Origin: Candidatus Heimdallarchaeota archaeon
GTDB lineage: Archaea; Asgardarchaeota; Heimdallarchaeia; Hodarchaeales; Hodarchaeaceae
Length of the DNA stretch: 64,000 nt
Assembly: GCA_011364965.1 (NCBI GenBank)
Contig: RDOB01000004.1
Coordinates: forward strand, 461,508 to 525,507
Direction: 5' to 3'
Part shown: in pieces, positions 6,393-58,258 of the stretch
Numbering within the stretch: the first letter of the stretch is position 1
How the letters are laid out: each line of letters starts with the position of its first letter
The notes under the pieces: generated by a model
Database searches by the model: none
What the model saw: the letters and a program-made list of their open reading frames with translations, nothing else
Told to the model about the DNA's origin: nothing
Program-made: the position numbers and the translations under genes

Positions 6393-6785
6393 CTAGACCC
6401 CATCTGAATCCGGCGGTCGAGGGACATTCTCAAGTTCCCGAATTAACCTCCTCCTTCGCCCTGCCACCGAGCTGTGGTACGCACAATAGAAAAAAAGGCC
6501 CGCATTTATCAAACAGCCAAACCCAATGAGAACAAATCCAAAAAAGAGCAAGGGTAACTTGGGATACTCATATGAAAAATCAATAGCTCCTACGCCAATC
6601 ATAGCTATAGCAACACCGCTCAGAAAGAATAAAAAACTAGGAATCGTTTGCGCCCAGCACTTGTACGAACAGTAGTAACGTTCATCATATGAAATCTTTT
6701 TCCAGAATGTTTGGCGAAATTTACGGTCACAGTAACTGCAGACGAGGAGTTCTTTCTTTTGAGTAGGTGTTTCCAGATTACACAC
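6393..6785 (-). CDS. Small membrane protein with TRASH/MYM-like Zn finger
   Basis: CSYC...YYCSYKC followed by 2 TM helices; paralog of 33779..34117. Confidence 0.65.
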   Translation of the reverse strand: MCNLETPTQKKELLVCSYCDRKFRQTFWKKISYDERYYCSYKCWAQTIPSFLFFLSGVAIAMIGVGAIDFSYEYPKLPLLFFGFVLIGFGCLINAGLFFYCAYHSSVAGRRRRLIRELENVPRPPDSDGV

Positions 6786-7154
6786 CTCCAGATTCCTAGG
6801 ACTGCATTAATCTCAGTCAAACTCAAAAAAACTAAAAGGAATCAGTATTAATCCTTTTCTATTTACACGGAATTTCTTGATCAGTAAGGATTATAGAACA
6901 TTATATATTTATTTCCATATTTTTCTCATCTCTATTTTATATTTTAGATAGTAATTTAAACTCCATGCAAAGTTTTAAGTGATTTAGTTGAATATCTCAA
7001 TTGCAAATTTTTGCGTTATTATAGAATCTTCCGAATACTCACTAAATTAGTATATTAAGTTCATTTCGAAGAACTACACAGAATGTATATTTTATAAGGA
7101 ATGAAATTCCATAAGACTTCTTGACTTGTTAGTAACGTTTCAGGTGGGATAGAT

Positions 7155-7814
7155 TTGCTAAAAAATGAAGAAGGGAATCACCAAGGTTTCTATTTAATTC
7201 AATTCAAGAAAGCACTGTATTGGATGGTAATTGTCTTAAGCGGGTATCTCTTGTATTACCTGAGTTGGGCGTTCTGGATCGCAATTAATGCTATCATTAG
7301 CTCTGGATTTCAATTTGAAGCTATTATCATAAGTCTAGCTTGGATTCCAGCGTTGGCCTTGGGATGGGCTATAGTCTCAGCTGGGATGACCTACCTCTTT
7401 CCAACGACCTTTCGGTTAATTCCGACCCTAGCTTGGATGTTGGGATGGATTGGAGGTGTAGGGGTGTTATACAAAAAAAAAACCACACCTGATGCTAAGC
7501 TTACATTAGGAACACTGCTATTCTTTCTTGGTGCTATTGTAGTGCTTGTCTTTGGAAAAGAGATCTTTAGCTTCTATACTTCGACTCTGATGCTTTTACA
7601 TCTGGATCCTCTTATTTATCTTGGGACAGTGGATAGGATAGGGTTTTACTGGCTTCTACCTCTCTGGCTTCTGAGCTGGAGTTTTTTCTGGTTGAAGCGG
7701 ATTCCCCAAATCAGATTAGAGGATAAAATCCTCTATAACTCTACGCTACTTTGGGTGGTATGGTTTATTATTCTCAACCTCTTTCTGTGGATGTATGCCC
7801 CGATTACTATCTAG
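7155..7814 (+). CDS. Membrane protein, 'MLKNEE' paralog family
   Basis: Clear similarity to 21528..22196 and 54121..54798 (YWLLPLWLLSWSFFWLK). Confidence 0.8.
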   Translation: MLKNEEGNHQGFYLIQFKKALYWMVIVLSGYLLYYLSWAFWIAINAIISSGFQFEAIIISLAWIPALALGWAIVSAGMTYLFPTTFRLIPTLAWMLGWIGGVGVLYKKKTTPDAKLTLGTLLFFLGAIVVLVFGKEIFSFYTSTLMLLHLDPLIYLGTVDRIGFYWLLPLWLLSWSFFWLKRIPQIRLEDKILYNSTLLWVVWFIILNLFLWMYAPITI

Positions 7815-14596: not shown

Positions 14597-15538
14597 TTAT
14601 TTGTTTAGTTGTAACAAAGAGTAGCTTATAGCTGGGTGACTTTGAATATTCGGATGAAGAAGTCCAGTTTCATTTAGTAATCTTGGATCAAAGGTTTTGT
14701 TATTATAAAAGCGCTTTAAACACTCTATTTCAGATTCAGTTATTTTTAATTGGATGGATCTTATGAATTCAATTGCTAAATTTTTCCAAGTATCAAACAT
14801 TTTATCGTTCTGTTGATTCTTTCGGGGAAGTACTTGGCGTAAATGTTCATCAAGTCTGATATTCGATAAATGAGAGTCAGGATCTACTTTTGGTAAGTAG
14901 AAACGACTATCTGTAAGGTTTTTCAGTATCAAACACTTCCTAAAGACGTGTTGGTTAAATTTGGCTGTGCTAATTGCTGCTACATCAAACAAATCTCTAG
15001 CAGATTTTCGACCTAAGAGGGTTCCACACTTTGAACTAAAAAGTTCCTCTCTTTGTGGTAATTGAATTTCTGACTCGTCTCCAGTCTTAGGATGGCGAAA
15101 AACACAGTTTATATCTTCAGTTAAGAATGGAATTCTATTCATATATCCTATTTCGACTTTGAAACTAGAACTTCGGACGGATCCGTATTTCACATCAAAA
15201 CGAGTGAGAGGATAACTGGCATTTATCTTAATATCAGTTTTATTATATCCTAATCGCACCAGGACTTCTTTGACAATAGAATCGATTTGATCTCGTTCTA
15301 TTCCCCAATCATTTGTACTATCCATTATTCTGAAATCAAAATCAAGATCTACTGATAAGCGTCTATATTGGCCTAATTCGATTAAATTAAGAGCTGTACC
15401 CCCTACAAGACGAAGGTATTTCTGAATATAAGGAATATCATACAATCGGTCAAGTACATCGGAAATTCGATAGACTTTTTCAACAGTTCCAAAATTATAC
15501 TCCTTTTCGATCGTTACTGACGATAATCCATTTGTCAA
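14597..15538 (-). CDS. AbiEii-family nucleotidyltransferase toxin (type IV TA)
   Basis: LVGGTAL...RLSVDLDF, K...L.R..ARDLFD. Confidence 0.88.
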   Translation of the reverse strand: MTNGLSSVTIEKEYNFGTVEKVYRISDVLDRLYDIPYIQKYLRLVGGTALNLIELGQYRRLSVDLDFDFRIMDSTNDWGIERDQIDSIVKEVLVRLGYNKTDIKINASYPLTRFDVKYGSVRSSSFKVEIGYMNRIPFLTEDINCVFRHPKTGDESEIQLPQREELFSSKCGTLLGRKSARDLFDVAAISTAKFNQHVFRKCLILKNLTDSRFYLPKVDPDSHLSNIRLDEHLRQVLPRKNQQNDKMFDTWKNLAIEFIRSIQLKITESEIECLKRFYNNKTFDPRLLNETGLLHPNIQSHPAISYSLLQLNK

Positions 15539-15617
15539 GAATGCATCCTTTCCTAATTCATAATCTATTCAATTACTATCCAGTTATCGAGTTTGTAAAA
15601 TCATTAAATATTTCTTT

Positions 15618-16541
15618 TTAGACTCCTCGTAAGTTATTTTCAATAAAATCTTTAGATACAAGTAGCTTCCAGCGTGAAATAGAAGTAGTCTTTTCTTGTT
15701 GAAAAGATCTATCAATGTAAAGCCAACTATTCGATAACCGTTCTTCTAGTGCTCTGAAAACCTTGTCAGGAAGATGCTCATAATAAACTGATTTGTACGT
15801 TGGATGATTCCGAAGGATTTCTAATACAAATCCTACTTTTCTAATCAGAATCTGTTTTGGTTCTAACAACCACAAAACTTCTAGTAATTTGTCAAAATCT
15901 AATCCACTTAAGTTTTCTAGGCTTTTCAGGGCTTCCTCCCACCCTCCTGCATACCTCACCCGATCAAGACTGTCGATAAAAGTTCGTTCTTTGGATGTCA
16001 CTTTCACTTGACTTTTTTCTGTTGCTTTCCTAAATACAATTCCTACACTTGGATGTTTTAAAGCTACTGACCGAAAAACAGCATTTCCTACCGTGAATGG
16101 CCTAAAAAAAGATTCACTACCCAAATATACATCATTAAATTCGTTATATGCTACACCATAATATTCTAAAGCTGTATGATAACAGATTACCTCTTTTCCA
16201 TTATGAAATTTACTTGCTACTAAAAATTTGTTTAAATTCTGATCTAGATTGTCTTGAAATGGCAATAATGCATGATAAAGTCCTCTGTAAATTCTTAATA
16301 GTTTTTTCTGTTCAACTAATGGCCCCACGTGAGCCTGATGAATGACTTTCCTAGATAAGGACGGGTTATTCAGTCGATAAAATTCTACAATCTCATTAAA
16401 AGTGATTACTTGTTCTTTTAGGGCTTTTTCATACAATAAACTACGTTCTGATTTCATTTGCAATATCATCCTAATAGGATTTCTTGCATTGTTCTTATAC
16501 TTATCCACCCTTATAAGTAGGATAACTCGAGTAGAATGCAA
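15618..16541 (-). CDS. AbiEi-family antitoxin / transcriptional regulator
   Basis: RIYRGLY, CYHTALEYYG, VTSKERTFIDSLDR; directly upstream of the AbiEii gene. Confidence 0.85.
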   Translation of the reverse strand: MHSTRVILLIRVDKYKNNARNPIRMILQMKSERSLLYEKALKEQVITFNEIVEFYRLNNPSLSRKVIHQAHVGPLVEQKKLLRIYRGLYHALLPFQDNLDQNLNKFLVASKFHNGKEVICYHTALEYYGVAYNEFNDVYLGSESFFRPFTVGNAVFRSVALKHPSVGIVFRKATEKSQVKVTSKERTFIDSLDRVRYAGGWEEALKSLENLSGLDFDKLLEVLWLLEPKQILIRKVGFVLEILRNHPTYKSVYYEHLPDKVFRALEERLSNSWLYIDRSFQQEKTTSISRWKLLVSKDFIENNLRGV

Positions 16542-19443: not shown

Positions 19444-20873
19444 TTTGTCAGACAACTGCTAAAAAGGTTAGCTGTTCTGAACAGGATGAGTCACGCATCC
19501 GCTATCCGGAAAGACCCCTTTCTTCAAAGAAAGAGGGTCTCGAGGGATTACTTTTGTCGAAGCTAGGTGGTGCTGATAGTTCTGGATCAGGTTTCGAGCT
19601 GCATTCAGGTCAGCGTTAAGGCGAAGTAAGCAGACCTTGCACTGATACAATCCCCGGCTTTGGCGATTCGCTTTCCGTACTACCCCACACTGACTGCATC
19701 GCTGAGACGTATACGCCTCAGGAAGCTGCACGACGTGTATCCCCGCTTGAGCGGCTTTATACTCTAGCATCTGCAGGAAGTTCAGGAAGGGGATCTGAAC
19801 GAAGTTCTGGTTGCTCCGTTTTCCGAGCTCACACCCCTGTTTCCAATGAGGGTTATACCCGACCACAAGGGTGTCAATCTGCTGCGCTTGGCAATGCTTA
19901 ATGAGCTTTCGAGACGATTGGTGCAAGATATTTGTTATTTGGTTACTTCGACGGCGGAACAACCGTAACAGCCGATGGGTCGGTTCTGATTGCTTCTGGT
20001 GCGCTGCGTGAGCGCGGTACTTTGCGAGTTGTTTGTTAAACCATTGATTAATTGTTTTGATAACCCCGCCTTTGATGAGAAACCCATCTGACGTAGCTAC
20101 GAGGTTATTCACGCCCAGATCTACCCCCAGGAGTCGAGGAGGAGGAAAAGCTGAGGCTAGTGTTGCAGGGGTGATTGGGACTTCATAAATCAGCTCCAAC
20201 ACATACCGGTCGTAGAACGGTAGGAAACGGGCACTGAGGTGGGTTTGGGGCGTAAAGGGGAACTTTCCCAGCGGAATAGCAGGGAATCCCCGCTTAAGCA
20301 TGTTTTGAGGGAAGAGGAGCTGTGAACCCCGGACGCGTACCCGGGGGTGGGGGAAGGTGAGGTGGTACCGCCCATTCTTTGGCTTATACCCCGGAAAGCG
20401 GGGCTTAGCCTGGAACTGCGTAGGATCGATCCGCCAGGCCTTCTTCGCCTGAAAATAGCTCCGCCATGTCTGTTCGACCTGGCGTAAGACTTGCTGGGGA
20501 ATGTAGCTATCGGTGAGCTCTTTGAGCGCCAAATAGGCCGGGTGGGTTTTGATCTGTCGATACAGGGCGATATACTGCAACCACTGTTTTGTAGCAAAAT
20601 ACTCCTGACGCACGAGGTAAAGGGCCATATTATACAGGTTTTTCGCCCGAATGCAGAGGTTTTCGAAGTAAGGCGTAGGTGTTAGCTGGATTCGATAGGC
20701 CCGCTGCTGGTGCGGGGTGCGTCTTCCTCTCATCCTAGGCTTCTTGGGAGCAGAGAAGTTTAAAAGGATAGGCGAGAGAGGTTACCGAAAATGCCGGAAA
20801 TGGGTGAAGATGGGGAGTGGATTGTTGTTCTTTCCCTAGTTGGTTCTCCGTTCTTCTGCAGCTGTCAGACAAA
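19444..20873 (-). mobile_element. TnpB-only (IS1341-like) element with apparent imperfect terminal inverted repeats
   Basis: Visibly GC-richer than its flanks; tttgtcagacaactgc (19444) vs gcagctgtcagacaaa (20858-20873), 14/16 inverted match; acagactatg direct repeat at 19428 and 20874. Confidence 0.7.
19468..20733 (-). CDS. tnpB: RNA-guided endonuclease TnpB (IS200/IS605 family)
   Basis: NLYN, GVDLGVNNL, VGYN..WKQ, EAYTSQRCSQC...CKVC, NADLNAARN. Confidence 0.93.
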   Translation of the reverse strand: MRGRRTPHQQRAYRIQLTPTPYFENLCIRAKNLYNMALYLVRQEYFATKQWLQYIALYRQIKTHPAYLALKELTDSYIPQQVLRQVEQTWRSYFQAKKAWRIDPTQFQAKPRFPGYKPKNGRYHLTFPHPRVRVRGSQLLFPQNMLKRGFPAIPLGKFPFTPQTHLSARFLPFYDRYVLELIYEVPITPATLASAFPPPRLLGVDLGVNNLVATSDGFLIKGGVIKTINQWFNKQLAKYRAHAAHQKQSEPTHRLLRLFRRRSNQITNILHQSSRKLIKHCQAQQIDTLVVGYNPHWKQGCELGKRSNQNFVQIPFLNFLQMLEYKAAQAGIHVVQLPEAYTSQRCSQCGVVRKANRQSRGLYQCKVCLLRLNADLNAARNLIQNYQHHLASTKVIPRDPLSLKKGVFPDSGCVTHPVQNS

Positions 20874-21042
20874 ACAGACTATGGTAAGAATGCGAATCAC
20901 GATAAATAAAACTTGCATTTCGGAAGCGAAGAATCAGGAGAGACAATCTGATCATTATTATCGTCTTCAATCCCCTGAAGTTTTCATTATTAGTATTCAG
21001 GATAAAAACTTACCAAACTTGTAAATGAATAATATAATTTGT

Positions 21043-21146
21043 CCAACGAAGATTACTGCTTCTATTGCTATCAGTCGAGGGAGTTTCTTCAAGAAATCAA
21101 TTTCCACCCTATTGTCCAATAGTAGCCCTCCTGCAGTTAGGAACAG
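21043..21146 (-). repeat. 23S-3'-end/trailer repeat copy (internal deletion)
   Basis: ccaacgaa..actgcttctattgctatc..gaggga..aatcaatttccac..agtagccctcctgcagttaggaacag. Confidence 0.88.
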
Positions 21147-21527
21147 GAATACCTAGAAGTACGAAAGGGGCGTTTTTAGGGGTTGAATTTTTCCCTCTAC
21201 CCTGTTAACACGTCTAGGAAGGTCCAACACGTCCAATGGAGAAAGTTTGATATATGATCAGTTAGAGATCCCGATCATTATTTAATTTATTCGCACCGAG
21301 AATACTATTTTATATTTTAGAAATTAAAAAGATCATAATTCAGAGATGTAAGTGAATAATTTGCATATTGTTAATGCAGATCTAATAGTTAACTTTGAAT
21401 CTTCCAAATACTCATTAAATTAATATTTAAGGTTCTTTTCCAAGAATTACACAGATAAAATATTTTATAAGAAATGAAATCCCATTAGACTTCTTGATTT
21501 TTTAGTAACGTTTTAGGTGGGATAGAT

Positions 21528-22196
21528 TTGCTGAAAAATGAAGAAGATAATCGCCAAGGTTTCTATTTAATTCAATTCAAGAAAGCACTGTATTGGATTG
21601 TAATTGTCTTAAGCGGGTATTTATTGTACTATCTCAGCTTGGGACTCTGGACAGTAATTCATTATATTGCTAATTCTGGATTTCAACTTGAGTCTATTAT
21701 TACAAGTCTAGTTTGGTTCCCTGCAGTAATCTTTGGGTGGGTAATGGTCTCAACTGTGATGGTATATTTCTCCCCTATTTACTTTCCAGTAATTCCGACC
21801 TTAGTATGGGAAGTAGGATGGCTAGGAGGTTTAGGGGCAATTTATTACAAAAAGAAAAACCCTCCTGATGCAAAATTGGCCGTTGGGACTCTTCTATTAT
21901 TCCTAAGCGCCATTTTTTTCCTGAACTTTGGGAAAGAGATCTTTAGTTTCTATACTTCATTCCTGATGACTTGGGACTTGGATCCGATTTTTTATCCTGC
22001 GATCTTCGATTATTTAGGGTACTACTGGCTTCTGCCTCTCTGGCTTCTGAGCTGGAGCTTTTTCTGGCTGAAAAAAATTACCCAATTTCGCTCAGAGGAT
22101 AAATCTCTCTTTCTTCTCTGGATTGCATGGCTTATTCTTCTTCAGTTCTTTCTGTGGATGTATACTATACCGTATTTAAACCCAAGTAGCTGGTAG
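21528..22196 (+). CDS. Membrane protein, 'MLKNEE' paralog family
   Basis: Paralog of 7155 and 54121, including a conserved ~300 bp upstream region. Confidence 0.8.
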   Translation: MLKNEEDNRQGFYLIQFKKALYWIVIVLSGYLLYYLSLGLWTVIHYIANSGFQLESIITSLVWFPAVIFGWVMVSTVMVYFSPIYFPVIPTLVWEVGWLGGLGAIYYKKKNPPDAKLAVGTLLLFLSAIFFLNFGKEIFSFYTSFLMTWDLDPIFYPAIFDYLGYYWLLPLWLLSWSFFWLKKITQFRSEDKSLFLLWIAWLILLQFFLWMYTIPYLNPSSW

Positions 22197-22277
22197 AGTT
22201 CAACCTCATACGATTATTGATGGTTTTGTGCCATAGCACACTTAAAGTATTTTTACATGAAAGAAAACCATAATATC

Positions 22278-28775: not shown

Positions 28776-29903
28776 ATGGCGGAGAATGAGATTTCGTACA
28801 AAATTAACATTATAGGAACTCCCGTGAGACATATTACAGAATTAATAGCCCAGAGTACAATATTAACACCTTTAATAGATACAAATGCCCAACAGAAGTA
28901 TAATACGGTTATTCAAATAATAAAAGAGTGGACAACGGACATTAAAGTATATTATACATATTGGAAAACTCTCCAGACACAGCAAGAAGCCACTCCTCAA
29001 GATAAGCAGGAATTCTACCAGGATAGTGATGGGGTCATGCTGGTATATGATTATGGGGTCAGAAAATCATTCGAGGATATCCCAGATTGGATAGAGGAGC
29101 AAAAGAAATATACTCCATCTACTACTAGTGTAATATTACTTGGAATAAAAGCAGAGGCGGCTGAATTCTCAAACCAAATGGTAAGAGAGCAAATAGAAGA
29201 ACTAAAGCTAAAACAACCATATGAAACCTCCCTCTCCAATCCCGAAATACTTCTGAAGTTGGGAAAGATTTTCATTTCTGAAATGTTCAGGACATGGGCG
29301 TACTCGCTGCTGATCTGCATCATTGGCAAAAATACGGAGCACAATTGTACATTTGGCAGATTGACAGCAGATACGAAATTTGATGTGAGTTATCTCCCAT
29401 CACTAGGGGTGGATATTCCAACCAAGAGGATCGCGATTGGGAAGGCACCAATAAAATTGATTATAATGATTACTGCAGGCCAAGAATCCTTTGGAAAACT
29501 CAGGCCAAGCTATTATCGCGGAGCAAGTGCGTGCTTGATCACATTCGACTTTAATGATCGGAATACAGTCGATGCTGTTCCAACCTTGCTAGCAGAGTTT
29601 CGAAAGCATATTCCAGAGGCTACTATTCCGATTGCATTGGTAGGGATCAAAACCGAGGACTCGATCGAGGATCACATCACCCCCGAGGAAGGCCAACGAC
29701 TCGCTGAAAAATTGCAGCTCAGATATTATGAGACTCAGTTAACTGATAAACAGCAAGTCGAGTGGATCCTCAAAGATATTGCATCAGCTAGTGTAGCTGC
29801 GATTCCTATAATTCTCAATGTCTGTCCCCATTGCGGGGTACCTAATCCCCAATACAAACACTTCTGTCCGAAATGTGAGGCAAATTTACTCAAAAAAGGG
29901 TAG
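28776..29903 (+). CDS. Tandem Rab-like (pseudo)GTPase domains plus C-terminal Zn ribbon
   Basis: Two GTPase-fold units (FYQDSDGVMLVYD; SLGVD..TAGQESFGKLRPSYYRGA); CPHC..FCPKC; P-loops degenerate. Confidence 0.82.
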   Translation: MAENEISYKINIIGTPVRHITELIAQSTILTPLIDTNAQQKYNTVIQIIKEWTTDIKVYYTYWKTLQTQQEATPQDKQEFYQDSDGVMLVYDYGVRKSFEDIPDWIEEQKKYTPSTTSVILLGIKAEAAEFSNQMVREQIEELKLKQPYETSLSNPEILLKLGKIFISEMFRTWAYSLLICIIGKNTEHNCTFGRLTADTKFDVSYLPSLGVDIPTKRIAIGKAPIKLIIMITAGQESFGKLRPSYYRGASACLITFDFNDRNTVDAVPTLLAEFRKHIPEATIPIALVGIKTEDSIEDHITPEEGQRLAEKLQLRYYETQLTDKQQVEWILKDIASASVAAIPIILNVCPHCGVPNPQYKHFCPKCEANLLKKG

Positions 29904-38295: not shown

Positions 38296-38428
38296 AAAAG
38301 TGAGAAACATTCCATTTAGGTGATATCTTGCTGAGAGTTGAAAGAGTTAACCATTTCCCACGAAGAAAAATGTGAGAGAAAACGAAATAGAAATTACTTA
38401 AACACAAAAACAAATTGCATTTTTCGTC
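38296..38428 (-). repeat. Second conserved non-coding element (trailer extension)
   Basis: tgagagttgaaagagttaaccatttcccacgaaga; contiguous with the main repeat. Confidence 0.7.
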
Positions 38429-38494
38429 TAACGAACGTACAGACATCAGATCACGCGCCAAATTTGTATGAACATCTCTCCTGCAACTTCTATC
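38429..38494 (-). repeat. 23S-trailer repeat copy (partial)
   Basis: taacgaacgtacagacatcagatcacgcgccaaatttgtatgaacatctctcctgcaacttctatc. Confidence 0.88.
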
Positions 38495-38576
38495 ACTCAT
38501 GCTCTGTTCCTCATGTATTTAGAATGCGTACCTCTCAGCCATCCAACATGGGAGGGGATAGCATAAAGTAGTTGCT

Positions 38577-39439: not shown

Positions 39440-39584
39440 AACAAACGTACAGACATCAGATCAAGCGCCAATTCTATAGTTTCTCCAGAATACTGCTTCT
39501 ATCGCTCTCTCCGCGGGAGTTTCTTAAGGAAATCAATTTCCACACTATTTATTGAATAGTAGCCCTCCTGCAGTGAGGGACAGC
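39440..39584 (-). repeat. 23S-3'-end/trailer repeat copy
   Basis: aacaaacgtacagacatcagatcaagcgccaatt...aatcaatttccacac...agtagccctcctgcagtgagggacagc. Confidence 0.92.
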
Positions 39585-39655
39585 CAACGAATAAGAAGAC
39601 CACTATGATTAGGAAGATTTATGAACAAGCACTGCTTTAAAAAACGAGAAATCCG

Positions 39656-40189
39656 ATGAGTGCGGAAAACGAGTATTTACTGAAGATCCCTATAATAGGA
39701 GAAAATACCTTACTTAATGCCAAGTTCGGTAGATTAACAGCAGAGGGGAAATTTAATGAGAATTCATTCCCATCATATGGAGTCGAAATCGTTACCAAGA
39801 AGATCAGAGTTGAGGAAGACAACGTAAAATTGATTCTAGTGATTGTTGCAGGAAGCTGCCCAAATTATTATCGAGGGGCATCTGGGTGCGTAATTCTATT
39901 TGATAAAGGAACAGTAAAGACCTTTACACAAGTAACCCGCTGGTTAGCAGAGTTTCGAAAATCTATTCCAGAGGTTACTATACCGATCGCTATAGTAGGG
40001 GTCAAAACCGAGGACCAAGAGGAGTTGATCACCCCCGAGGAAGGGCAGCAACTTGCTGAAAAATTGCAGATTGCATATTATGAAACCACCCTCACAGATA
40101 AAGCTCATGTAGAATATATCCTCACCGAAATATCGAAGAAAGCTCTAGCTACCAAAGAGTGGTTCGTCATTCAGGACGAAAAACCGTGA
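39656..40189 (+). CDS. Rab-like pseudo-GTPase
   Basis: PSYGVEIVTKKI, YYRGASG, PIAIVG, YYET; P-loop and G3 motif missing. Confidence 0.8.
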   Translation: MSAENEYLLKIPIIGENTLLNAKFGRLTAEGKFNENSFPSYGVEIVTKKIRVEEDNVKLILVIVAGSCPNYYRGASGCVILFDKGTVKTFTQVTRWLAEFRKSIPEVTIPIAIVGVKTEDQEELITPEEGQQLAEKLQIAYYETTLTDKAHVEYILTEISKKALATKEWFVIQDEKP

Positions 40190-42080: not shown

Positions 42081-42225
42081 CAACGAACGTACAGACCTCA
42101 GATCACGCGCCAATTTGTATGAATATCTCTCTTGCTGCTTCTATTGCTATCTCCGAGGGATTTTTTAAAAAAACTCAATTTCCACACTATCTACTAAATA
42201 GTAGCCCTCCTGCGGTTAGGAACAG
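42081..42225 (-). repeat. 23S-3'-end/trailer repeat copy (near consensus)
   Basis: caacgaacgtacagacctcagatcacgcgccaatttgtatgaatatc...ctcaatttccacac...gtagccctcctgcggttaggaacag. Confidence 0.94.
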
Positions 42226-42349
42226 ATAACTAAGGAGGAAAGATCCCAAAGGTAGGATTGGTAGTAACTACATATTTTATTTTCTAGGAAAATATTCGGT
42301 GACCGAACATTTTTATATCTCACTCTAGAAGATAAACCTATCCCTGTTT

Positions 42350-44624: not shown

Positions 44625-45152
44625 TTATCGCGAAGGTAGCGCTTTTCGGGCGAGGGTAGAAAGAATGTCCTCGAAAATAACGGAATCTGTTTGAGGCAGT
44701 TCATAGTAAGCCATACCACTCGAATCCGCAAAAGCTTGGCCAGATTCAGTAGGAACAGCATCAGAGTCAGAAAGGATCCCAATCAATGCTTTAGGAATCT
44801 GAGGGTTAGAAGTATAGGTAAGAAAGGTATGAAAAAGACTCTGACTCTGCATAAATGATTCAGGACTGGCTTTATTAAAAAGAAAGAGAACTCCATAAGA
44901 AGATCCTTTCAAATGCTGTAAAGAATTCGGGAGTAAAGGAACCCAAAGATGCACTAGCATCAATTTAACATGAGTACGATCGAGGAGAATCTTTCGGGTG
45001 TCTATATCGATTTGGAAAGTCCTAAATCGATTCATTTTGGCTTTTGTAACTTTATACTGCATAAAAGACGAAATAAGGCCAAAAGTAATCTCAAGCTCCC
45101 CTAGCAGGACGATCTTCATTAAATACTCTTTTTCAGACATGAGAAGGCACAA
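44625..45152 (-). CDS. Rab-like pseudo-GTPase
   Basis: MKIVLLG, GVLFLFNK..PESF, IPKALIG, GQAFAD..GMAYYE. Confidence 0.75.
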   Translation of the reverse strand: MCLLMSEKEYLMKIVLLGELEITFGLISSFMQYKVTKAKMNRFRTFQIDIDTRKILLDRTHVKLMLVHLWVPLLPNSLQHLKGSSYGVLFLFNKASPESFMQSQSLFHTFLTYTSNPQIPKALIGILSDSDAVPTESGQAFADSSGMAYYELPQTDSVIFEDILSTLARKALPSR

Positions 45153-46081: not shown

Positions 46082-46600
46082 ATGACCATAGAGAATAAAA
46101 AAGGATATATCTTGAAGATCTGTGTGCTAGGGGAAAATACCGAACACAATCGGAGATTTAGTCGGTTAACAGCTACAGACACATTCGAGACCGATTATAT
46201 GTTAGAATTTGGAGTAGATATACCTACGAAGAAAATAACCATTGAGAAGAGGGCGGTAAAACTCATACTGGCAACAATTATGGGAGATGAATGGGATATT
46301 GAGTCACCTAGAGCTGCCTATTATCAGGAAGCCAGTGGTTGCTTGATATTATACGAAACCAAAAATCCTACGAGCTTAAAGCGCGCTGAAGACTATTATA
46401 GGGACTTCACTATGCATTCAAAAGGACCCCCCATACCGATTGCGTTGGTAGGAATCAGAACTTCCGAAAAGCAAAACGAATTAAATGCAGGGAAGCAACT
46501 CGCGGATCAATTAGGCGTGGGGTACTATGAAACCACCCTTTCGGATAAGCAGCAGGTAGAATTCATCCTCACCAACATGGCAGAGAAAGTCATCGCATAG
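46082..46600 (+). CDS. Rab-like pseudo-GTPase
   Basis: LKICVLGENTEHN, FGVDIPTKKI, YYQEASG, PIALVG. Confidence 0.8.
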   Translation: MTIENKKGYILKICVLGENTEHNRRFSRLTATDTFETDYMLEFGVDIPTKKITIEKRAVKLILATIMGDEWDIESPRAAYYQEASGCLILYETKNPTSLKRAEDYYRDFTMHSKGPPIPIALVGIRTSEKQNELNAGKQLADQLGVGYYETTLSDKQQVEFILTNMAEKVIA

Positions 46601-47067: not shown

Positions 47068-47568
47068 TCACTTGTTCAGATATTTTCTCAATAAATGTTT
47101 AACCACAGTATCAAGCTCATTTCTATTCGTTAAAGTGCAATCAAAATAGGAACAATTGAGGAGTTGTTCAGTAAGTACTTGTGCCTCTTCCGTAGAGACC
47201 TCTTCAGAATCGGAAGTGATACCAACCAATACCATAGGAATAGCAGGCTCTGGAATATGTTTTCGGAATTCCTCGTACCGTTTGGAAATATTATTAAATG
47301 AAGTACGATCCTTTTTCTCAAAAAATATAATACAGGCTTTTGATCCTCTAAAATAACTTGCCATAGTTCTAGAAAATCTTGCTTGAGCTGAAATTCGGGT
47401 AAAAATTAACGAAATATTATGATTATCAAACCTGATCTTCATGGTATCCGTATCTAAACCTAATGTATCAAAAGAATCTTGAGACGACTTAGAATAAGTA
47501 TAAATGGCTACGAACTTTTTAGATACTTCAGAACTCCCAATTAAAGCAATTTTGAATGTGTTTTCCAT
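47068..47568 (-). CDS. Rab-like pseudo-GTPase
   Basis: FKIALIG, DTLGLD, SAQARFSRTMASYFRGSKA, PMVLVG. Confidence 0.8.
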   Translation of the reverse strand: MENTFKIALIGSSEVSKKFVAIYTYSKSSQDSFDTLGLDTDTMKIRFDNHNISLIFTRISAQARFSRTMASYFRGSKACIIFFEKKDRTSFNNISKRYEEFRKHIPEPAIPMVLVGITSDSEEVSTEEAQVLTEQLLNCSYFDCTLTNRNELDTVVKHLLRKYLNK

Positions 47569-52150: not shown

Positions 52151-52488
52151 TTTCTATCCTCCTAAAAATCATTAATTTTCTACATCATACTTATCTAGTC
52201 AGGTTTTCTTGATTTTCGCATTTTATATTATATTATTATTAGGGCGAAGATGTTGGTATTGGGCACAAATCATGACTTTTCTAACATGCTATAGGCATCA
52301 AATAATAATGAAAATATCTCATTTTTAAAAATAAAATTTGACATTATATGGTTATCTATTTCGGATAAGAAGAGGCAAATGAACAACCTATCACGTTAAG
52401 ATTCGATCTTTTAGGATAATATAAAAGGAAAAAGGTTTGAAATATTTTAGAAAATGATTCCAAGAAAGAAACAGTAATTTTTTTTTCC

Positions 52489-52618
52489 CAACGAACGTAC
52501 AGACATCAGAGTAATAACCAAAACTAGACTAGACCAACCAAGCTGGAACACCGCTTCTACAGCTACCTGATGAGGGACCATCTCAATTTCCAAACAGGCA
52601 ACATTCCCGCGCTGAGGT
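52489..52618 (-). repeat. 23S-3'-end/trailer repeat copy (degenerate tip)
   Basis: caacgaacgtacagacatcagag...ccgcttctacagctacctgatgagggaccatctcaatttcca. Confidence 0.88.
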
Positions 52619-52659
52619 AGAAAACAAAAATTTTTTTTTAAAATCTTGAAGCAATAAAA

Positions 52660-53223
52660 ATGCGAGACTTGATGACTATGGAAGAGTATTTCAGAACCAT
52701 CTGTATAGTGGGAACCTCAGAAAAAGCTACAAAAGGGGTAATCCAATGGAATGAGGTCTGGGGAAACGTTGCTTCAACAAAAGTGGGGGTGAATATCGCC
52801 ACTCAGCGTATCCAAATTGATGATAAGTCCGTGATAATATTTCTTTTCGCATTTGAAAAAAACTGGATGCCAGTAGCTCGAACTCAGCGATATGCTTTAA
52901 CAAGTGCTGTTGTGATTGCATTTGATAAGGGAGATAGCAAGGCACTTGATTCAATCCAGAATGTAATAGAAGAAATAAAGCAAAGTCAGAAGAAGCGAAC
53001 AGAATATGTGGAAGCACGAGCTTTCCCCAGTGCTTTCCCCCCTCGAGAGCATCCACCTATGGCATTGATGGGATTTCGCACCGAAAGAGAAGAAATATCA
53101 ACCTACAAGGGAGAACAATTAGCAGAAACACACGGGATAGCATATTATGAAGGCAAACTAGCAGAGAAAGAAATGCTTAATACCATCATCAGGGATATGA
53201 TACGGGAATCATTCCGCCAATAG
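52660..53223 (+). CDS. Rab-like pseudo-GTPase
   Basis: TICIVG, STKVGVNI, AVVIAFD, PMALMG, GEQLAE.HGIAYYE. Confidence 0.75.
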   Translation: MRDLMTMEEYFRTICIVGTSEKATKGVIQWNEVWGNVASTKVGVNIATQRIQIDDKSVIIFLFAFEKNWMPVARTQRYALTSAVVIAFDKGDSKALDSIQNVIEEIKQSQKKRTEYVEARAFPSAFPPREHPPMALMGFRTEREEISTYKGEQLAETHGIAYYEGKLAEKEMLNTIIRDMIRESFRQ

Positions 53224-53401
53224 AATTTTGATTAGTACACATGGAAAGGATAAACGAAATTCGACTTCTGAAAAAGAATCTACAGCGTACCTGCTGAAGA
53301 TTAGTATCATTGGCGAGAATTCTGATTAAAGAAACAAGGGAGAGAAAATCCAATAGAGATCGTTTACATTCAAAAAACAAAAAATAAGTTGAATATGCGT
53401 C

Positions 53402-53530
53402 CAACGAACGTACAGACATCAGAGCAAGAGCCAAAACAAGAACTAATCTGAAATACCGCTTCTACAGCTACCTGACGAGGGATCATCTCAATTTCCACAC
53501 GGTTAGCCCTCCTGCGGTTAGGGACAGCTA
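53402..53530 (-). repeat. 23S-3'-end/trailer repeat copy contiguous with the 23S fragment
   Basis: caacgaacgtacagacatcagag...ctcaatttccacacggttagccctcctgcggttagggacagcta. Confidence 0.94.
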
Positions 53531-53830
53531 GCTAAGCATGTCGGCCGAAGCCTCCACGCGTACACTACTGTTCTATCAACGAGGTCTTCTACCTCAGCAG
53601 TCGTCTACTCGCACATAGTTGTCGTCGCTGACCCCACTGGCCATTTGGCTACGAGCAGAGTGGATGGCTCTTTTCGAGGGGCGTTTCGCGCTTAGATGCA
53701 TTCAGCGCCTATCGCGTAGCGCGTGGCGGCCGGGCAGTGCCCTTCCGGACAACCCGTAGACTAGAGGCGCCCATGCCCTGTTCCTCTCGTACTAAGAGCA
53801 CGTTCCTCTCAACCATCCGACACGTCCAAC
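53501..53830 (-). rRNA. 23S rRNA 3' fragment (domain VI only, ~330 nt)
   Basis: Minus strand has AGTACGAGAGGAAC (sarcin-ricin loop, 53780-53793), GCTGAATGCATCTAAGC, GTAGAAGAC..GTTGATAG and the H94 pairing GGATGGTT/AGCCATCC; sequence upstream is not rRNA. Confidence 0.93.
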
Positions 53831-54120
53831 GAAGAAAGTTTGAGATATGATCAGTAAATCTTTCTGATCATCAGGTAATTTATTCACAAGAAGAACGCTA
53901 TTTTAAATTTTGGCAACTAGAAAGGTCATAATTCAGCACTTTAAGTGATTTAATCACATATTGCTAGTGCAAATTTATTACTTAACTTTGAATATCCCAA
54001 ATACTCACTTATTTGATATTTTACGTTCTTCTCTAAGAATTACACAGATACAATATTTTATAAGGAATGAAATCCCATTAGACTTCTTGATTTATTAGCG
54101 ACTTATTAGGCGGGATAGAA

Positions 54121-54798
54121 TTGCTAAAAAATGAAGAAGAAGTTCATCAAGAGGTTCCCTCAATCCAATTCAAGAAAGTACTGTATTGGATTGTAATTAT
54201 TTTAAGCGGGTATCTATTGTACTATCTCAGCCTGGGACTCTGGTCAGTAATTCATTATATAGTTAATTCTGGATTTCAACTTGAAGCTGTTTTTACAGGT
54301 CTAGTTTGGTTCCCAGCAGTAATCTTTGGGTGGATAATGATATCAAGTGGATGGTATATCTCCCCCACTTACTTTTCGTTGATCACGACTCTTTTATGGG
54401 AGATAGGTTGGTTTGGAGGGTTATGGCTTATATATCGTAAGAAGGAAAACCTTCCTGATGCAAAGTTAGCCATAGGTACTATTTTATTCTTTCTGAGTGC
54501 TATTATTGTAGTCGTTTTTGGAAAAGAGTTCTTTGGTTTATATACTTCATTCCTGATGCTTTTACACCTAGATCCGCTAATTTATACTGGGGCAGTGGAT
54601 AGAATAGGGTTTTACTGGCTTCTCCCGCTCTGGCTTCTGAGTTGGAGTTTTTTCTGGTTGAAGATATTTCCTCAATTCAACTCAGAGGAGAAATTACTCC
54701 ATAAAAAATCATTTCTTCTCTGGGTAGCATGGTTCCTTCTTCTTCACCTTATTTTATGGATATATACTATACCGTATTTCAACCTGAGCAGCTGGTAG
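54121..54798 (+). CDS. Membrane protein, 'MLKNEE' paralog family
   Basis: Paralog of 7155 and 21528. Confidence 0.8.
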   Translation: MLKNEEEVHQEVPSIQFKKVLYWIVIILSGYLLYYLSLGLWSVIHYIVNSGFQLEAVFTGLVWFPAVIFGWIMISSGWYISPTYFSLITTLLWEIGWFGGLWLIYRKKENLPDAKLAIGTILFFLSAIIVVVFGKEFFGLYTSFLMLLHLDPLIYTGAVDRIGFYWLLPLWLLSWSFFWLKIFPQFNSEEKLLHKKSFLLWVAWFLLLHLILWIYTIPYFNLSSW

Positions 54799-54977
54799 AG
54801 TTCAAATTCATACCATTACGAATGTTATTGAGCAATATCACACATGAGGTCTTTTAGGCATGAAAAAGGTTCTCTATCGCCTTCATTTTGATTTCTGTTG
54901 ATAGAAAACTTTATATATTTGTTTTCTTAAGTATTTTGAATGAATTTGGGTGAACCCAAATCCCAGAGGGTTATAAA

Positions 54978-56714
54978 ATGGAAATAAAAAATCTCAAGAA
55001 CAAAACCAATATATTATCTCTCATATTGGCGTTTAGCTTATTTTATGGCAGTTTTGTCAATGAAACGGAAGTTACGGGAGATATAGAGCCGACAGAAAAG
55101 ATTGTGTTAATCGATGGAGCAAATGACCAAGCAAGTGGACTTTATCAAGAAATTTTAGCCTTGGAGATTTCATTCTCCCGATTGGTTATAAATGAGAAAA
55201 ACGATCTGCCTAAAATAGCACTGAAAACTGGAAGTATTGTAATTCTAATCTCTCATGGTACAGAAGAAGGACTTCTTGTAGGCAAAGATATTATTTATTG
55301 GAAGGATGATTTAGCGCTAAACCTAGCAAACTTTTCTCCTAGTTGTCTTTTTGTGGTTTCCTGTTATTCTTGGTATTTTGAAGACTATTTTCCATATGAA
55401 TACAGTTTATACACAGTTCCTTACAACATGGATGCCGGGATAGCAGCTTCCTGGACATTAATTAATTTATTAGAGGAGCAATATGTGAATAACAATATCG
55501 ATTGTTTTTCTAATGTACAGGATCTCCTCAAACATCAAGAATATCTTATGAACAAGAGTAATCAACGTTTTAAAGTAATCTCTCAGGATCCTAGAAAGTT
55601 TCTTCCTCTTAGCAATGAATTATCTACCGCTTACTCTCATCTTGATGATGTTCTTGGATCTGATTCTAATGGTTATCCCATAGACTATTGGGTATATGAT
55701 AATACTCAATACAAGGGATATAATCAATATGGAACTTATGTTGATGATGGGGTTTGGGAGAATGAAGGAAATAATGCTATAAATATCATTTGGTATAACT
55801 TCACGAGTGCAGAAGTTTATTACGGATTTGGAAAATTTCAATGGGTAGATGGATGGGGTCTAATACCTTCTCCTCCTTTTTGTAGTATTAATTATATGCG
55901 GGGTAGTTCAAGTTATATTGCTAATAATCATGATGTAGCAGCAATGACTCTCAATTATTATTGGCATTGTCGACTTTTTGATTTATCAGATGAAAATTTG
56001 AATATAATTGTAGGTCAATGTCACAAGTCTATTTTCACCATCGAATATCCTTATCATGCTTGGGGTTACTATGAGGAGGTAGAAGACTATCTAGTTGATA
56101 AATGGGATGGGTTGACCCATAATGGATGTGGATATACTGCATACGCAATCGAGACTTATCCTCAGACGTGGAGGCACAGAGGGGACACAAACCATCCCTC
56201 TCCACCTGATGGCGATTGGGATGCGTACGATTTTCAAGATGGAATCTGCGTATTTATCACGAAATTTGATATGAGCGCAGATAATGATGTGGATGATGAT
56301 GGATATTCGAATTTAGATGAACTTACTTCTTATAAAAGTGATCCATGGGATGCGTATGATAGATTTTGGGATGTTAAAGGCGTAGCCCCTCCTATTGCAT
56401 TTGGGACATACATTCAAGATTATATTGAATCTGGAGATGTTGATTGGTATAAGTTTAGTCAAGCTAGTGCAGATGAATTCACTTTATATGTAATGGTAGA
56501 AACTTACGCTACTATTGTTATCAGACTTTATTCGGGAACAGGACCAAGTTTAACTTTACGAAAAACCTGGACCAAAGCTCCCGGGACAGGTTTAATATAT
56601 TCTTGGGATCCTCAAAGCACAGGCTGGGGTAATAGTTACTTCGTGAAAATCACCTATTCTAGCGGGTCCTGGCAAGGGGAATATCAGACCAAGGTGACCT
56701 ATTCCGCTTCTTAG
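54978..56714 (+). CDS. Secreted multidomain protein (possible caspase/CHAT-like N-domain, Ca-binding DxDxDG repeat, PPC-like C-domain)
   Basis: Signal peptide; ILISHG...VVSCYS; DVDDDGYSNLDE...SDP; GDVDWYKF. Confidence 0.65.
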   Translation: MEIKNLKNKTNILSLILAFSLFYGSFVNETEVTGDIEPTEKIVLIDGANDQASGLYQEILALEISFSRLVINEKNDLPKIALKTGSIVILISHGTEEGLLVGKDIIYWKDDLALNLANFSPSCLFVVSCYSWYFEDYFPYEYSLYTVPYNMDAGIAASWTLINLLEEQYVNNNIDCFSNVQDLLKHQEYLMNKSNQRFKVISQDPRKFLPLSNELSTAYSHLDDVLGSDSNGYPIDYWVYDNTQYKGYNQYGTYVDDGVWENEGNNAINIIWYNFTSAEVYYGFGKFQWVDGWGLIPSPPFCSINYMRGSSSYIANNHDVAAMTLNYYWHCRLFDLSDENLNIIVGQCHKSIFTIEYPYHAWGYYEEVEDYLVDKWDGLTHNGCGYTAYAIETYPQTWRHRGDTNHPSPPDGDWDAYDFQDGICVFITKFDMSADNDVDDDGYSNLDELTSYKSDPWDAYDRFWDVKGVAPPIAFGTYIQDYIESGDVDWYKFSQASADEFTLYVMVETYATIVIRLYSGTGPSLTLRKTWTKAPGTGLIYSWDPQSTGWGNSYFVKITYSSGSWQGEYQTKVTYSAS

Positions 56715-57610: not shown

Positions 57611-57688
57611 GGAAAGCAAACCTAAACCTCGACAATTCTAACGAGTCCAGAAGACATAAAGACATACCAAAAAGGAATAAAGAATCCT

Positions 57689-57835
57689 CAACGCACGTAC
57701 AGACATCAAATCACGCGCCAAATTGTATGAATATCTCTCTTGCTGCTTCTATCGCTATCTCTCGAGGGATTTTCCCATAGAACTCAATTTCCCCACTATT
57801 TACTAAATAGTTACCCTCCTGCGGTTTAGGACAGC
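57689..57835 (-). repeat. 23S-3'-end/trailer repeat copy
   Basis: caacgcacgtacagacatcaaatcacgcgcca...ctcaatttcc...ccctcctgcggtttaggacagc. Confidence 0.92.
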
Positions 57836-57919
57836 TGCTATCATATACAAAGAATGTATTAATCCCAGTCAAATTCGAAAGAGAAATAAAAGGAATCAGC
57901 ATAAACACTCTGCTATTTG

Positions 57920-58258
57920 CACGGAAATACCTGATCAGTAAGGATTAAAGAGTATTATGTGGAATTTTCTAATAATAAACTCTATTTTGTACTTTAAATT
58001 CTAATTTAAAGTCCATTTAAAGTTTTAAGTGATCTAGTTAAATATTTTAATTGCATATTTTATTCCTTTTTTGAATCTTGCAAAGAATCACTAAATTGGT
58101 ATTTTACGTTCTTTTCTAAGAATTACATAGATGGTATATTTTATAAGGAATAAAATTTCATTAGGCTTCTTGATTTGTTAGTAACGTTTTAGGTGGGATA
58201 GATTTGCTGAAAAATAAGGAAGGAGATCGCTAAAGCTTCTATTCGATCCAATTCCAAA
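57920..58258 (+). pseudogene. Upstream region plus truncated 5' end of a 'MLKNEE' paralog
   Basis: Matches ~6866-7200; ttgctgaaaaataaggaaggagatcgctaa stops after 9 codons. Confidence 0.75.

Follow-up and report, generated by a model that had tools for sequence, protein, structure and literature searches.

An orphan 23S rRNA domain VI in an array of rRNA-tail repeats and gene cassettes of a Hodarchaeales archaeon

The orphan domain VI and its surroundings

The stretch of 64,000 nucleotides analyzed here (the window) makes up the last 64 kb of a 525-kb contig in the metagenome-assembled genome (MAG) of a Candidatus Heimdallarchaeota archaeon from the Hodarchaeales (G000; 2.97 Mb, 16 contigs, 87% complete). 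Its gene content, with TPR proteins and many Ras-family GTPases, agrees with an Asgard archaeon of the Hodarchaeales type. On the minus strand, the window contains the 3' part of a 23S rRNA gene, i.e. domain VI with helices H94 to H101, located at 53498-53836 and ending at the mature 3' end. Rfam returned a single match for large-subunit (LSU) rRNA in the window, and also in the complete 2.97-Mb MAG, at 53512-53822 (-), which covers positions 2721-2973 of RF02540 with 222.4 bits (E 2.3e-66). The longer model alignment spans about 53836 to 53498, where the 23S 3' end is reached (model positions of about 2707-2987). With the RF02540 structure mapped onto the sequence, 70 of the 73 pairs are standard. 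The sarcin-ricin loop (SRL, H95) AGUACGAGAGGAAC is intact at 53779-53794 (-), as evident from the model alignment and from the comparison of orphans, and a 56-nt insert in H98 (53605-53660, -), recognizable by its insert columns in the alignment, folds as a closed stem. It is an expansion of the ES39 type, and an insert here is what one expects from Asgard archaea with their enlarged ES39. One private change, a G at 53709, affects the otherwise invariant motif GAUAAG.

A BLAST search with two full 23S genes found no domain V upstream of the orphan, nor does it come with the rest of domains I-VI, and it is not a functional LSU rRNA gene. In the rRNA sense it passes uninterrupted into a tail repeat (53402-53530, -) that comprises the last ~35 nt of 23S plus trailer and represents a short form devoid of two inserted hairpins. 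The trailer copy itself occupies 53402-53497 (-), is homologous to the native trailers of the related genomes G008 and G005 and corresponds to the 3' half of the pre-23S processing helix. The orphan is genuine, an additional copy of the terminal 330 bases of 23S with the trailer, separated from the gene. The preliminary description of this DNA had already noted some 330 nt of well-pairing domain VI with its SRL and helices H94-H101, the lack of rRNA upstream and the direct fusion to a repeat copy, all of which we confirm. It had placed the 5' limit at 53830; the vicinity to the domain V/VI boundary holds, whereas the exact edge does not, as 23S homology fades only ~5-10 nt further on.

The 5' edge of the orphan is directly abutted by a flank (53837-54120) followed by a gene for a 225-aa multi-pass membrane protein (54121-54798, +) that travels with the orphan and is without match in Pfam or NCBIfam. 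Paralogues of this gene with 62-67% amino acid identity are present at 21528-22196 and 7155-7814. The flank is paralogous to 21224-21527, and 78% identity exists between 21223-22262 and 53816-54865. At 21003-21223 (-), a decayed paralogue of the orphan unit still exhibits the first ~20 nt of domain VI, interior scraps and a truncated tail, and the copies at 21.1 and 53.8 kb have the junction ...CAAACTTTCTCCATTGGACGTGTTGGA in common. There is a third domain VI relic at 38425-38548 (-), in which a deletion of ~270 nt has fused a decayed H94-SRL stem-loop to the trailer end (BLAST query 24-74 and 411-448). A fourth copy of the region upstream of the 225-aa gene resides at 57852-58254, is 78% identical to 6800-7205, and directly abuts the tail at 57688-57850; the 225-aa gene proper is apparently truncated at this site. 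Either the 225-aa gene family or this upstream relic is always situated just upstream of a tail. Flank and following tail (in rRNA sense) are inherited jointly, as seen for C8 2680-3155 versus window 34924-34436, for C8 10881-11144 versus 39701-39440 and for the units at 53.8 and 21.1 kb. The tails next to the orphan, both found by repeat search and BLAST, are located at 52488-52617 (-; downstream in rRNA sense and with a decayed 23S end) and 57688-57850 (-; upstream). A cassette for a Ras-like small GTPase (52660-53223, +; PF00071) is placed between the tails at 52488 and 53402.

There are three exact occurrences of the 10-mer TTCGTTGGAC in the window, two of them framing the orphan unit and one located at the 3' edge of its decayed paralogue. 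Where the 10-mer occurs on the 5' side, the bases just upstream of TTGGAC are similar to native 23S; the actual 5' edge of the orphan is therefore probably not located there. Its recurrence may be a coincidence of native sequence; alternatively, it could represent a crossover core or microhomology.

Public sequencing runs contain the stretch 53100-54300 in 20 cases from 7 studies. Logan contigs with zero differences cover 52541-53513 (runs X1 and X5), 53493-53780 (X5), 53751-55000 (X1) and 53751-54188 (X3 and X5). Both junctions of the orphan are thus bridged by error-free contigs that were assembled independently, from runs of three different studies. One contig from X1 aligns to domain VI and then enters domain V sequence at 53823. 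In three DNA runs, a second version of 53495-53780 (285 nt) was detected, which is ~90% identical to the orphan with 27 differences and 1 gap in 286 nt. This variant reaches a depth of ~31 compared with 9-18 for the orphan's own contigs (2-3 times), at a ratio that is unequal between runs, and it matches the orphan exactly at both termini, over 63 nt on the 5' side and over 39 nt on the 3' side. Two pairs are exchanged in a fully compensatory manner (53714/53682, C-G to U-A, and 53594/53582, A-U to G-C) and most of the remaining listed differences (22 are listed) rework the stems of ES39 with pairing kept. This mostly compensatory pattern indicates that the orphan came from a working rRNA lineage and that both versions descend from functional rRNA shaped by selection on rRNA structure. 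The variant may be the true 23S of G000 or that of a co-resident relative. In the RNA run X20, only foreign-like 23S contigs mapped to the rRNA part and none to the flanks; one 95-nt contig (depth 4, single difference) is not assignable to the orphan. The contig-level read data yielded neither a circular form nor a clean excision joint. One joint from 52577 to 53487, skipping 909 nt with 15 extra letters at a depth of 2.6, was considered as an excision product, but the most convincing explanation is a further tail copy that was split into two parts in the alignment (80% likeness). With an orphan-specific 24-mer from ES39 as query, no exact match was obtained among JGI metagenome contigs.

The tail array and its position behind the 23S rRNA gene

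Approximately 19 tail repeats, all in one orientation, are spread between gene cassettes over the last 62 kb of the contig. Three more are found on an 11-kb contig and elsewhere in the G000 genome there is only one further tail copy. The sequence behind the true 23S gene of G008 belongs to the same family and the trailer of G005 is likewise homologous. The G008 trailer pairs with leader/ITS sequence upstream of the 23S gene of this genome and thus constitutes the 3' half of the pre-23S processing helix. As the repeat equals the native trailer, the unit of the family consists of the complete trailer preceded by ~35 nt from the 23S terminus; the orphan is merely longer in the 5' direction. The tails combine a few 5' types with a few 3' types in mosaic fashion. 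When 14 of them were folded with RNAalifold, an attC-like fold was not obtained (-1.9 kcal/mol, ends unpaired).

Some tails deserve separate mention. AT-rich palindromic hairpins of the type TTTCTT-loop-AAGAAA are present at two places in many of them (e.g. 42134-42228 and 39492-39586) and hairpins of the same type occur in three rRNA loops of orphans from G002, G004 and G020 (L035:3491-3832, L046:6012-6362 and L043:69-331); their stems covary between copies. A solitary tail copy of the G008 type (CACTAATCGCACAAGGGCTAACCGTGTGGAAATT...) resides at G000:C12:200814-200890 (L067:8815-8891, +), 260 kb from the array and in opposite orientation, just downstream of a 493-aa ORF (L067:7288-8769) whose end is leucine-rich-repeat-like by eye. 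On contig C8 of G000, 90 nt behind a complete tail, a partial tail (L030:3244-3318) contains only the 5' part, from the 23S end to GGAAATTGAG, suggestive of breakage or recombination inside tails.

Between the tails, one to few genes are encoded on either strand. The cargo includes ABC transporters with FtsX permeases, a GH38 mannosidase, an MFS transporter, a GNAT acetyltransferase, a subtilase, a chloramphenicol-phosphotransferase-like kinase, a nucleotidyltransferase, an AbiEii/AbiEi pair, a GC-rich TnpB, six or seven Ras-like GTPases and many proteins without family match. The genes for Ras-family GTPases are located at 28776-29903, 39656-40189, 44625-45152, 46082-46600, 47068-47568 and 52660-53223. 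Across genomes (window plus the arrays of nine other contigs), Ras-family small GTPases are the commonest recurring cargo, and part of the Asgard GTPase expansion therefore sits in mobile-looking cassettes. The tnpB gene (19468-20733, -; OrfB_IS605 plus Cas12f1-like TNB domain) forms an island of 50% GC in an array of 35% GC and looks like a recently acquired element of the IS200/605 type adjoining the decayed tail at 21003. The AbiEii toxin/AbiEi-like antitoxin pair (14597-16541, -) is encoded in a repeat-poor stretch between the tails at 2312 and 21003.

Integrases of families PF00589 or PF00239 had no match on the array contigs, the arrays contain no reverse transcriptase, and neither the ORFs of the window nor G008:C8 encode a tyrosine recombinase, a resolvase or another recognizable recombinase. 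Comparison of ten unassigned cargo proteins each with PHROGs and NCBIfam gave no matches, and a hidden recombinase was not recognized among them. An integrase gene near the start of contig C1 (G000:C1:230-1219) was considered and dismissed, the product being a generic Xer-like recombinase below every curated cut-off that has no link to the array; tRNA genes follow ~5.4 and 6.2 kb past its end (6583-6667 and 7372-7446). The second tyrosine recombinase of G000 scored 55 bits against a cut-off of 265 for integron integrases.

Related genomes reveal where such arrays reside. In G008, a 54.7-kb contig (C8) ends in the true 23S gene (Rfam 2545-2987, cut by the contig end), behind which ~25 tails follow on the same strand and orphan domain VI copies are situated 8 and 26 kb away. 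On contig C44 of G005, the true 23S gene is followed by a further tail. Domains V and VI are contiguous in both true genes, and on both contigs the direct repeats of the 23S 3' end are co-oriented with and downstream of the true gene. For G000, orientation and contig end fit an array behind 23S; as its own true 23S gene is not assembled, we infer this adjacency from the relatives and the contig end. A segment of G008:C9 (L016:1436-1800) features the 16S 3' end, a spacer of ~250 nt and the 23S 5' end in contiguity, from which it follows that the rRNA operon of the genus is a linked 16S-23S arrangement with the array behind it. Three one-contig genomes of the genus (G010, G015 and G007) gave no 23S match and no tail array was found behind the 23S genes of other families of the class (G038, G028, G024 and G034). 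In an exact-pattern scan of one genome per prokaryotic species, the tail was seen only in Hodarchaeota-type MAGs, besides three chance bacterial matches. The true 23S gene of G008 features an insert of ~320 nt in domain V when compared with G038 (G008:C8:54309-54628; L028:14309-14628, -). It is bounded by the inverted repeat GACTTAGC/GCTAAGTC, is probably a small archaeal rRNA intron and precedes the 5' edge common to the orphans by 31 nt.

Orphan copies of domain VI exist in most same-genus genomes searched, with up to three per genome and 71-82% identity to the one described here. Long-class orphans of at least nine genomes start within ~20 nt of one and the same 23S position. Of the two orphans in G008, which branch with the true tail of this genome in a tree, one is 95% and the other 92% identical to it; they have suffered two SRL hits, a 7-nt deletion and 5-7 broken pairs. 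Out of the 73 pairs of the model, the true tails of G008 and G005 retain 70 and 69 standard ones and the orphans 63-70. The SRL loop is kept in 11 of the 13 orphans compared, and in the orphans of G002, G004 and G020 the AT-rich hairpins interrupt rRNA loops. Given this decay, together with that of the window relics, orphans as a class have not been under lasting selection. The divergence of the short tails in G008 is not steady with distance from the gene and a simple rule of 'older means further' thus fails for them. Private changes at invariant columns were discarded as a measure of decay, being confounded by branch length; the true G005 tail scores 10.

Origin of the orphan

Several explanations for the orphan have to be weighed. 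Assemblies of MAGs frequently break at rRNA genes, and that of G000 lacks the true 23S gene, both of which would be in line with an assembly chimera at an rRNA repeat. Its probability is nevertheless close to nil in the light of the error-free contigs across both junctions, the 20 runs holding the stretch, the ~22% diverged paralogue that keeps the junction (with the shared flank at ~21224 invoked in the preliminary description against a chimera) and the same architecture in many relatives. Equally negligible is the chance that the orphan represents a separately encoded piece of a split 23S rRNA. While a well-paired domain VI starting near the V/VI boundary in a MAG without full 23S would match such an arrangement, the uninterrupted passage through domains V and VI in the true genes of G008 and G005, the continuation from domain VI into domain V on the X1 contig, the occurrence of several diverged, decaying orphans in a single genome and the second domain VI variant at higher depth all contradict it. 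Reverse transcription from the 3' end of pre-rRNA with variable stops would generate 5'-truncated retrocopies with a common 3' edge and differing 5' extents, as indeed observed (query ~17-24, 205-284 and 295-346). We judge this very improbable. No RVT_1 match was found in G000, G008, G001 and G013, out of five genomes with arrays that were searched; the copies are not dispersed but share one orientation at a single locus behind 23S; the long class has one common 5' edge across genomes; and copies of intermediate length can result from deletion, as seen at 38.5 and 21.1 kb. Considering the bridged junctions, the contiguous true 23S genes of relatives and the setting in an array, we reject misassembly, split rRNA and retrocopy, the latter two having been among the options offered earlier.

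It is also conceivable that the orphan is a stand-alone functional RNA, for example an SRL-bearing decoy or regulator transcribed from the divergent intergenic region and kept by selection. The 70 intact pairs and the SRL, preserved next to a flank that has diverged by ~20% from its paralogue, and the widespread retention of the SRL loop would agree with such a function, to which we assign a small chance, however, as other orphans decay (63-67 of 73 pairs, SRL hits, deletions, insertions of AT-rich hairpins), the two window relics are nearly destroyed, the orphan itself has its private change within GAUAAG and its vicinity is devoid of PIN genes. Local origin by tandem or segmental duplication of the 23S end, e.g. 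through unequal exchange via the microhomology of TTCGTTGGAC present at the V/VI boundary and the trailer end, with later separation by insertions and no circle that contained domain VI, is unlikely as well. The three occurrences of the 10-mer at unit edges and the closeness of the G008 orphans to G008's own gene speak in favor of this scenario, but the flank of the 225-aa gene abuts the orphan directly with no short tail in between, the same junction recurs in the diverged paralogue, the bases in front of TTGGAC are native-like, putting the 5' edge probably elsewhere than at the 10-mer, and the trailers of other genomes do not end in TTGGAC.

We consider it probable that circular cassettes have inserted into the 23S tail in the Campbell manner and that the orphan is the 23S end duplicated or displaced in this process. 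The preliminary description had named this option, which is supported by the array behind complete 23S genes in relatives, by their decaying orphans with resemblance to their own true tails and by the two decayed long copies in the window, while a circle was not seen and an integrase not found. Circular DNA composed of cargo genes and a copy of the 23S tail would recombine with the chromosomal 23S tail in a single crossover, possibly catalyzed by host homologous recombination or by a recombinase provided in trans. This would duplicate the tail: one copy would continue the live 23S gene, whereas its counterpart behind the cargo would become an orphan. Most circles would carry only ~35 nt of 23S plus trailer and a minority class, to which the orphan and the adjacent 225-aa gene may belong, would carry all of domain VI. 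As part of a cassette array situated immediately behind the true 23S gene, the orphan would then act as one long boundary repeat. If the DNA between two tails were excised, a circle would form again, and over repeated rounds segments would be exchanged with the live 23S gene. Being a conserved sequence, the rRNA tail could anchor homology between species. Repeated recombination within tails predicts both the joint inheritance of flanks with tails and the mosaic structure of the latter. The constant position of the 225-aa gene family, or of its upstream relic, next to a tail and the lack of an array-encoded recombinase fit this mechanism as well. The integrity of the orphan despite a flank diverged by ~20-22% needs recent arrival, refreshment by recombination or selection. 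Segment exchange with the live gene would explain why the orphan is intact while old copies decay; recent arrival is the simpler alternative to such refreshment. Most likely, the orphan itself is non-functional and a by-product of cassette insertion at the 23S tail.

On a more speculative note, mobile cassettes might carry replacement rRNA tails, i.e. an incoming domain VI with trailer would join the working 23S and displace the previous tail without the aid of an element-encoded integrase. Cassette traffic would then be coupled to the exchange of rRNA segments between Hodarchaeales lineages and the orphan would be a former or potentially working tail. We regard this as possible though rather doubtful. 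Should it be true, the 23S tail would be the anchor of a gene-capture system undescribed in the literature searched.

In essence, the large-subunit rRNA of this Asgard archaeon is not split. Rather, in Hodarchaeales such orphan 23S ends are the marks of a large array of cassettes with its anchor behind the rRNA operon, and the interest of the locus rests in this array system more than in the orphan that revealed it. The Hodarchaeales are placed near the origin of eukaryotes. With many Ras-like small GTPases, ABC transporters and toxin-antitoxin genes among its cargo, the array may be one route by which accessory and 'eukaryote-like' genes are gained or shuffled. In practice, assemblies of MAGs fall apart at the rRNA operon because of these tails, and annotation can mistake them for partial rRNA genes.

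Comparison with known systems

Our literature search for Asgard archaea with rRNA-tail arrays or with integration at 23S 3' ends found nothing, and we compared the array with systems known from other contexts. In archaea, the pre-rRNA processing helix is a leader-trailer stem cut by the tRNA-splicing endonuclease. The tail repeat carries the 3' half of this helix, and the native G008 trailer has its pairing partner in the leader/ITS. In contrast, orphans and short tails are without a leader partner nearby and cannot form the helix in cis; only seven pairs of inverted repeats of 30-62 nt were listed for the window and none of them contains tail sequence. A gene island directly behind the 23S gene is reminiscent of HVR2 of SAR11, a strain-variable hypervariable island between the 23S and 5S genes; to our knowledge, neither an rRNA-tail repeat array nor orphan rRNA domains have been described there.

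Integron cassette arrays and CALINs are reported to be enriched in Asgard archaea, and a Hodarchaeum MAG with one IntI and a cluster of three attC sites has been noted (Ghaly et al., 2022, PMC9668308). The array described here shares with them cassettes of mostly one to three genes without their own recombinase, co-oriented repeats of ~130 nt and a single chromosomal site. It differs in that the repeats are copies of an rRNA tail and not attC hairpins, that gene orientation is mixed and that no IntI is adjacent. Assignment to integrons or CALINs was dismissed on these grounds, the missing attC-like fold included, even if the contig ends leave some room for an intI gene.

The closest parallel is offered by partial 3' ends of tRNA or other genes that flank integrated elements as attL and attR after Campbell integration, for example in Sulfolobus elements or in the case of e14 in icd of E. 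coli. There as here, a direct repeat of the target 3' end brackets the insert, the live gene is completed by one of the copies while the second remains as an orphan, and old copies decay. Unlike in those elements, the inserted units are devoid of an integrase, the target is the 3' region of 23S rRNA together with its processing trailer, the duplicated tract reaches ~430 nt and ~20 insertions are stacked at one site.
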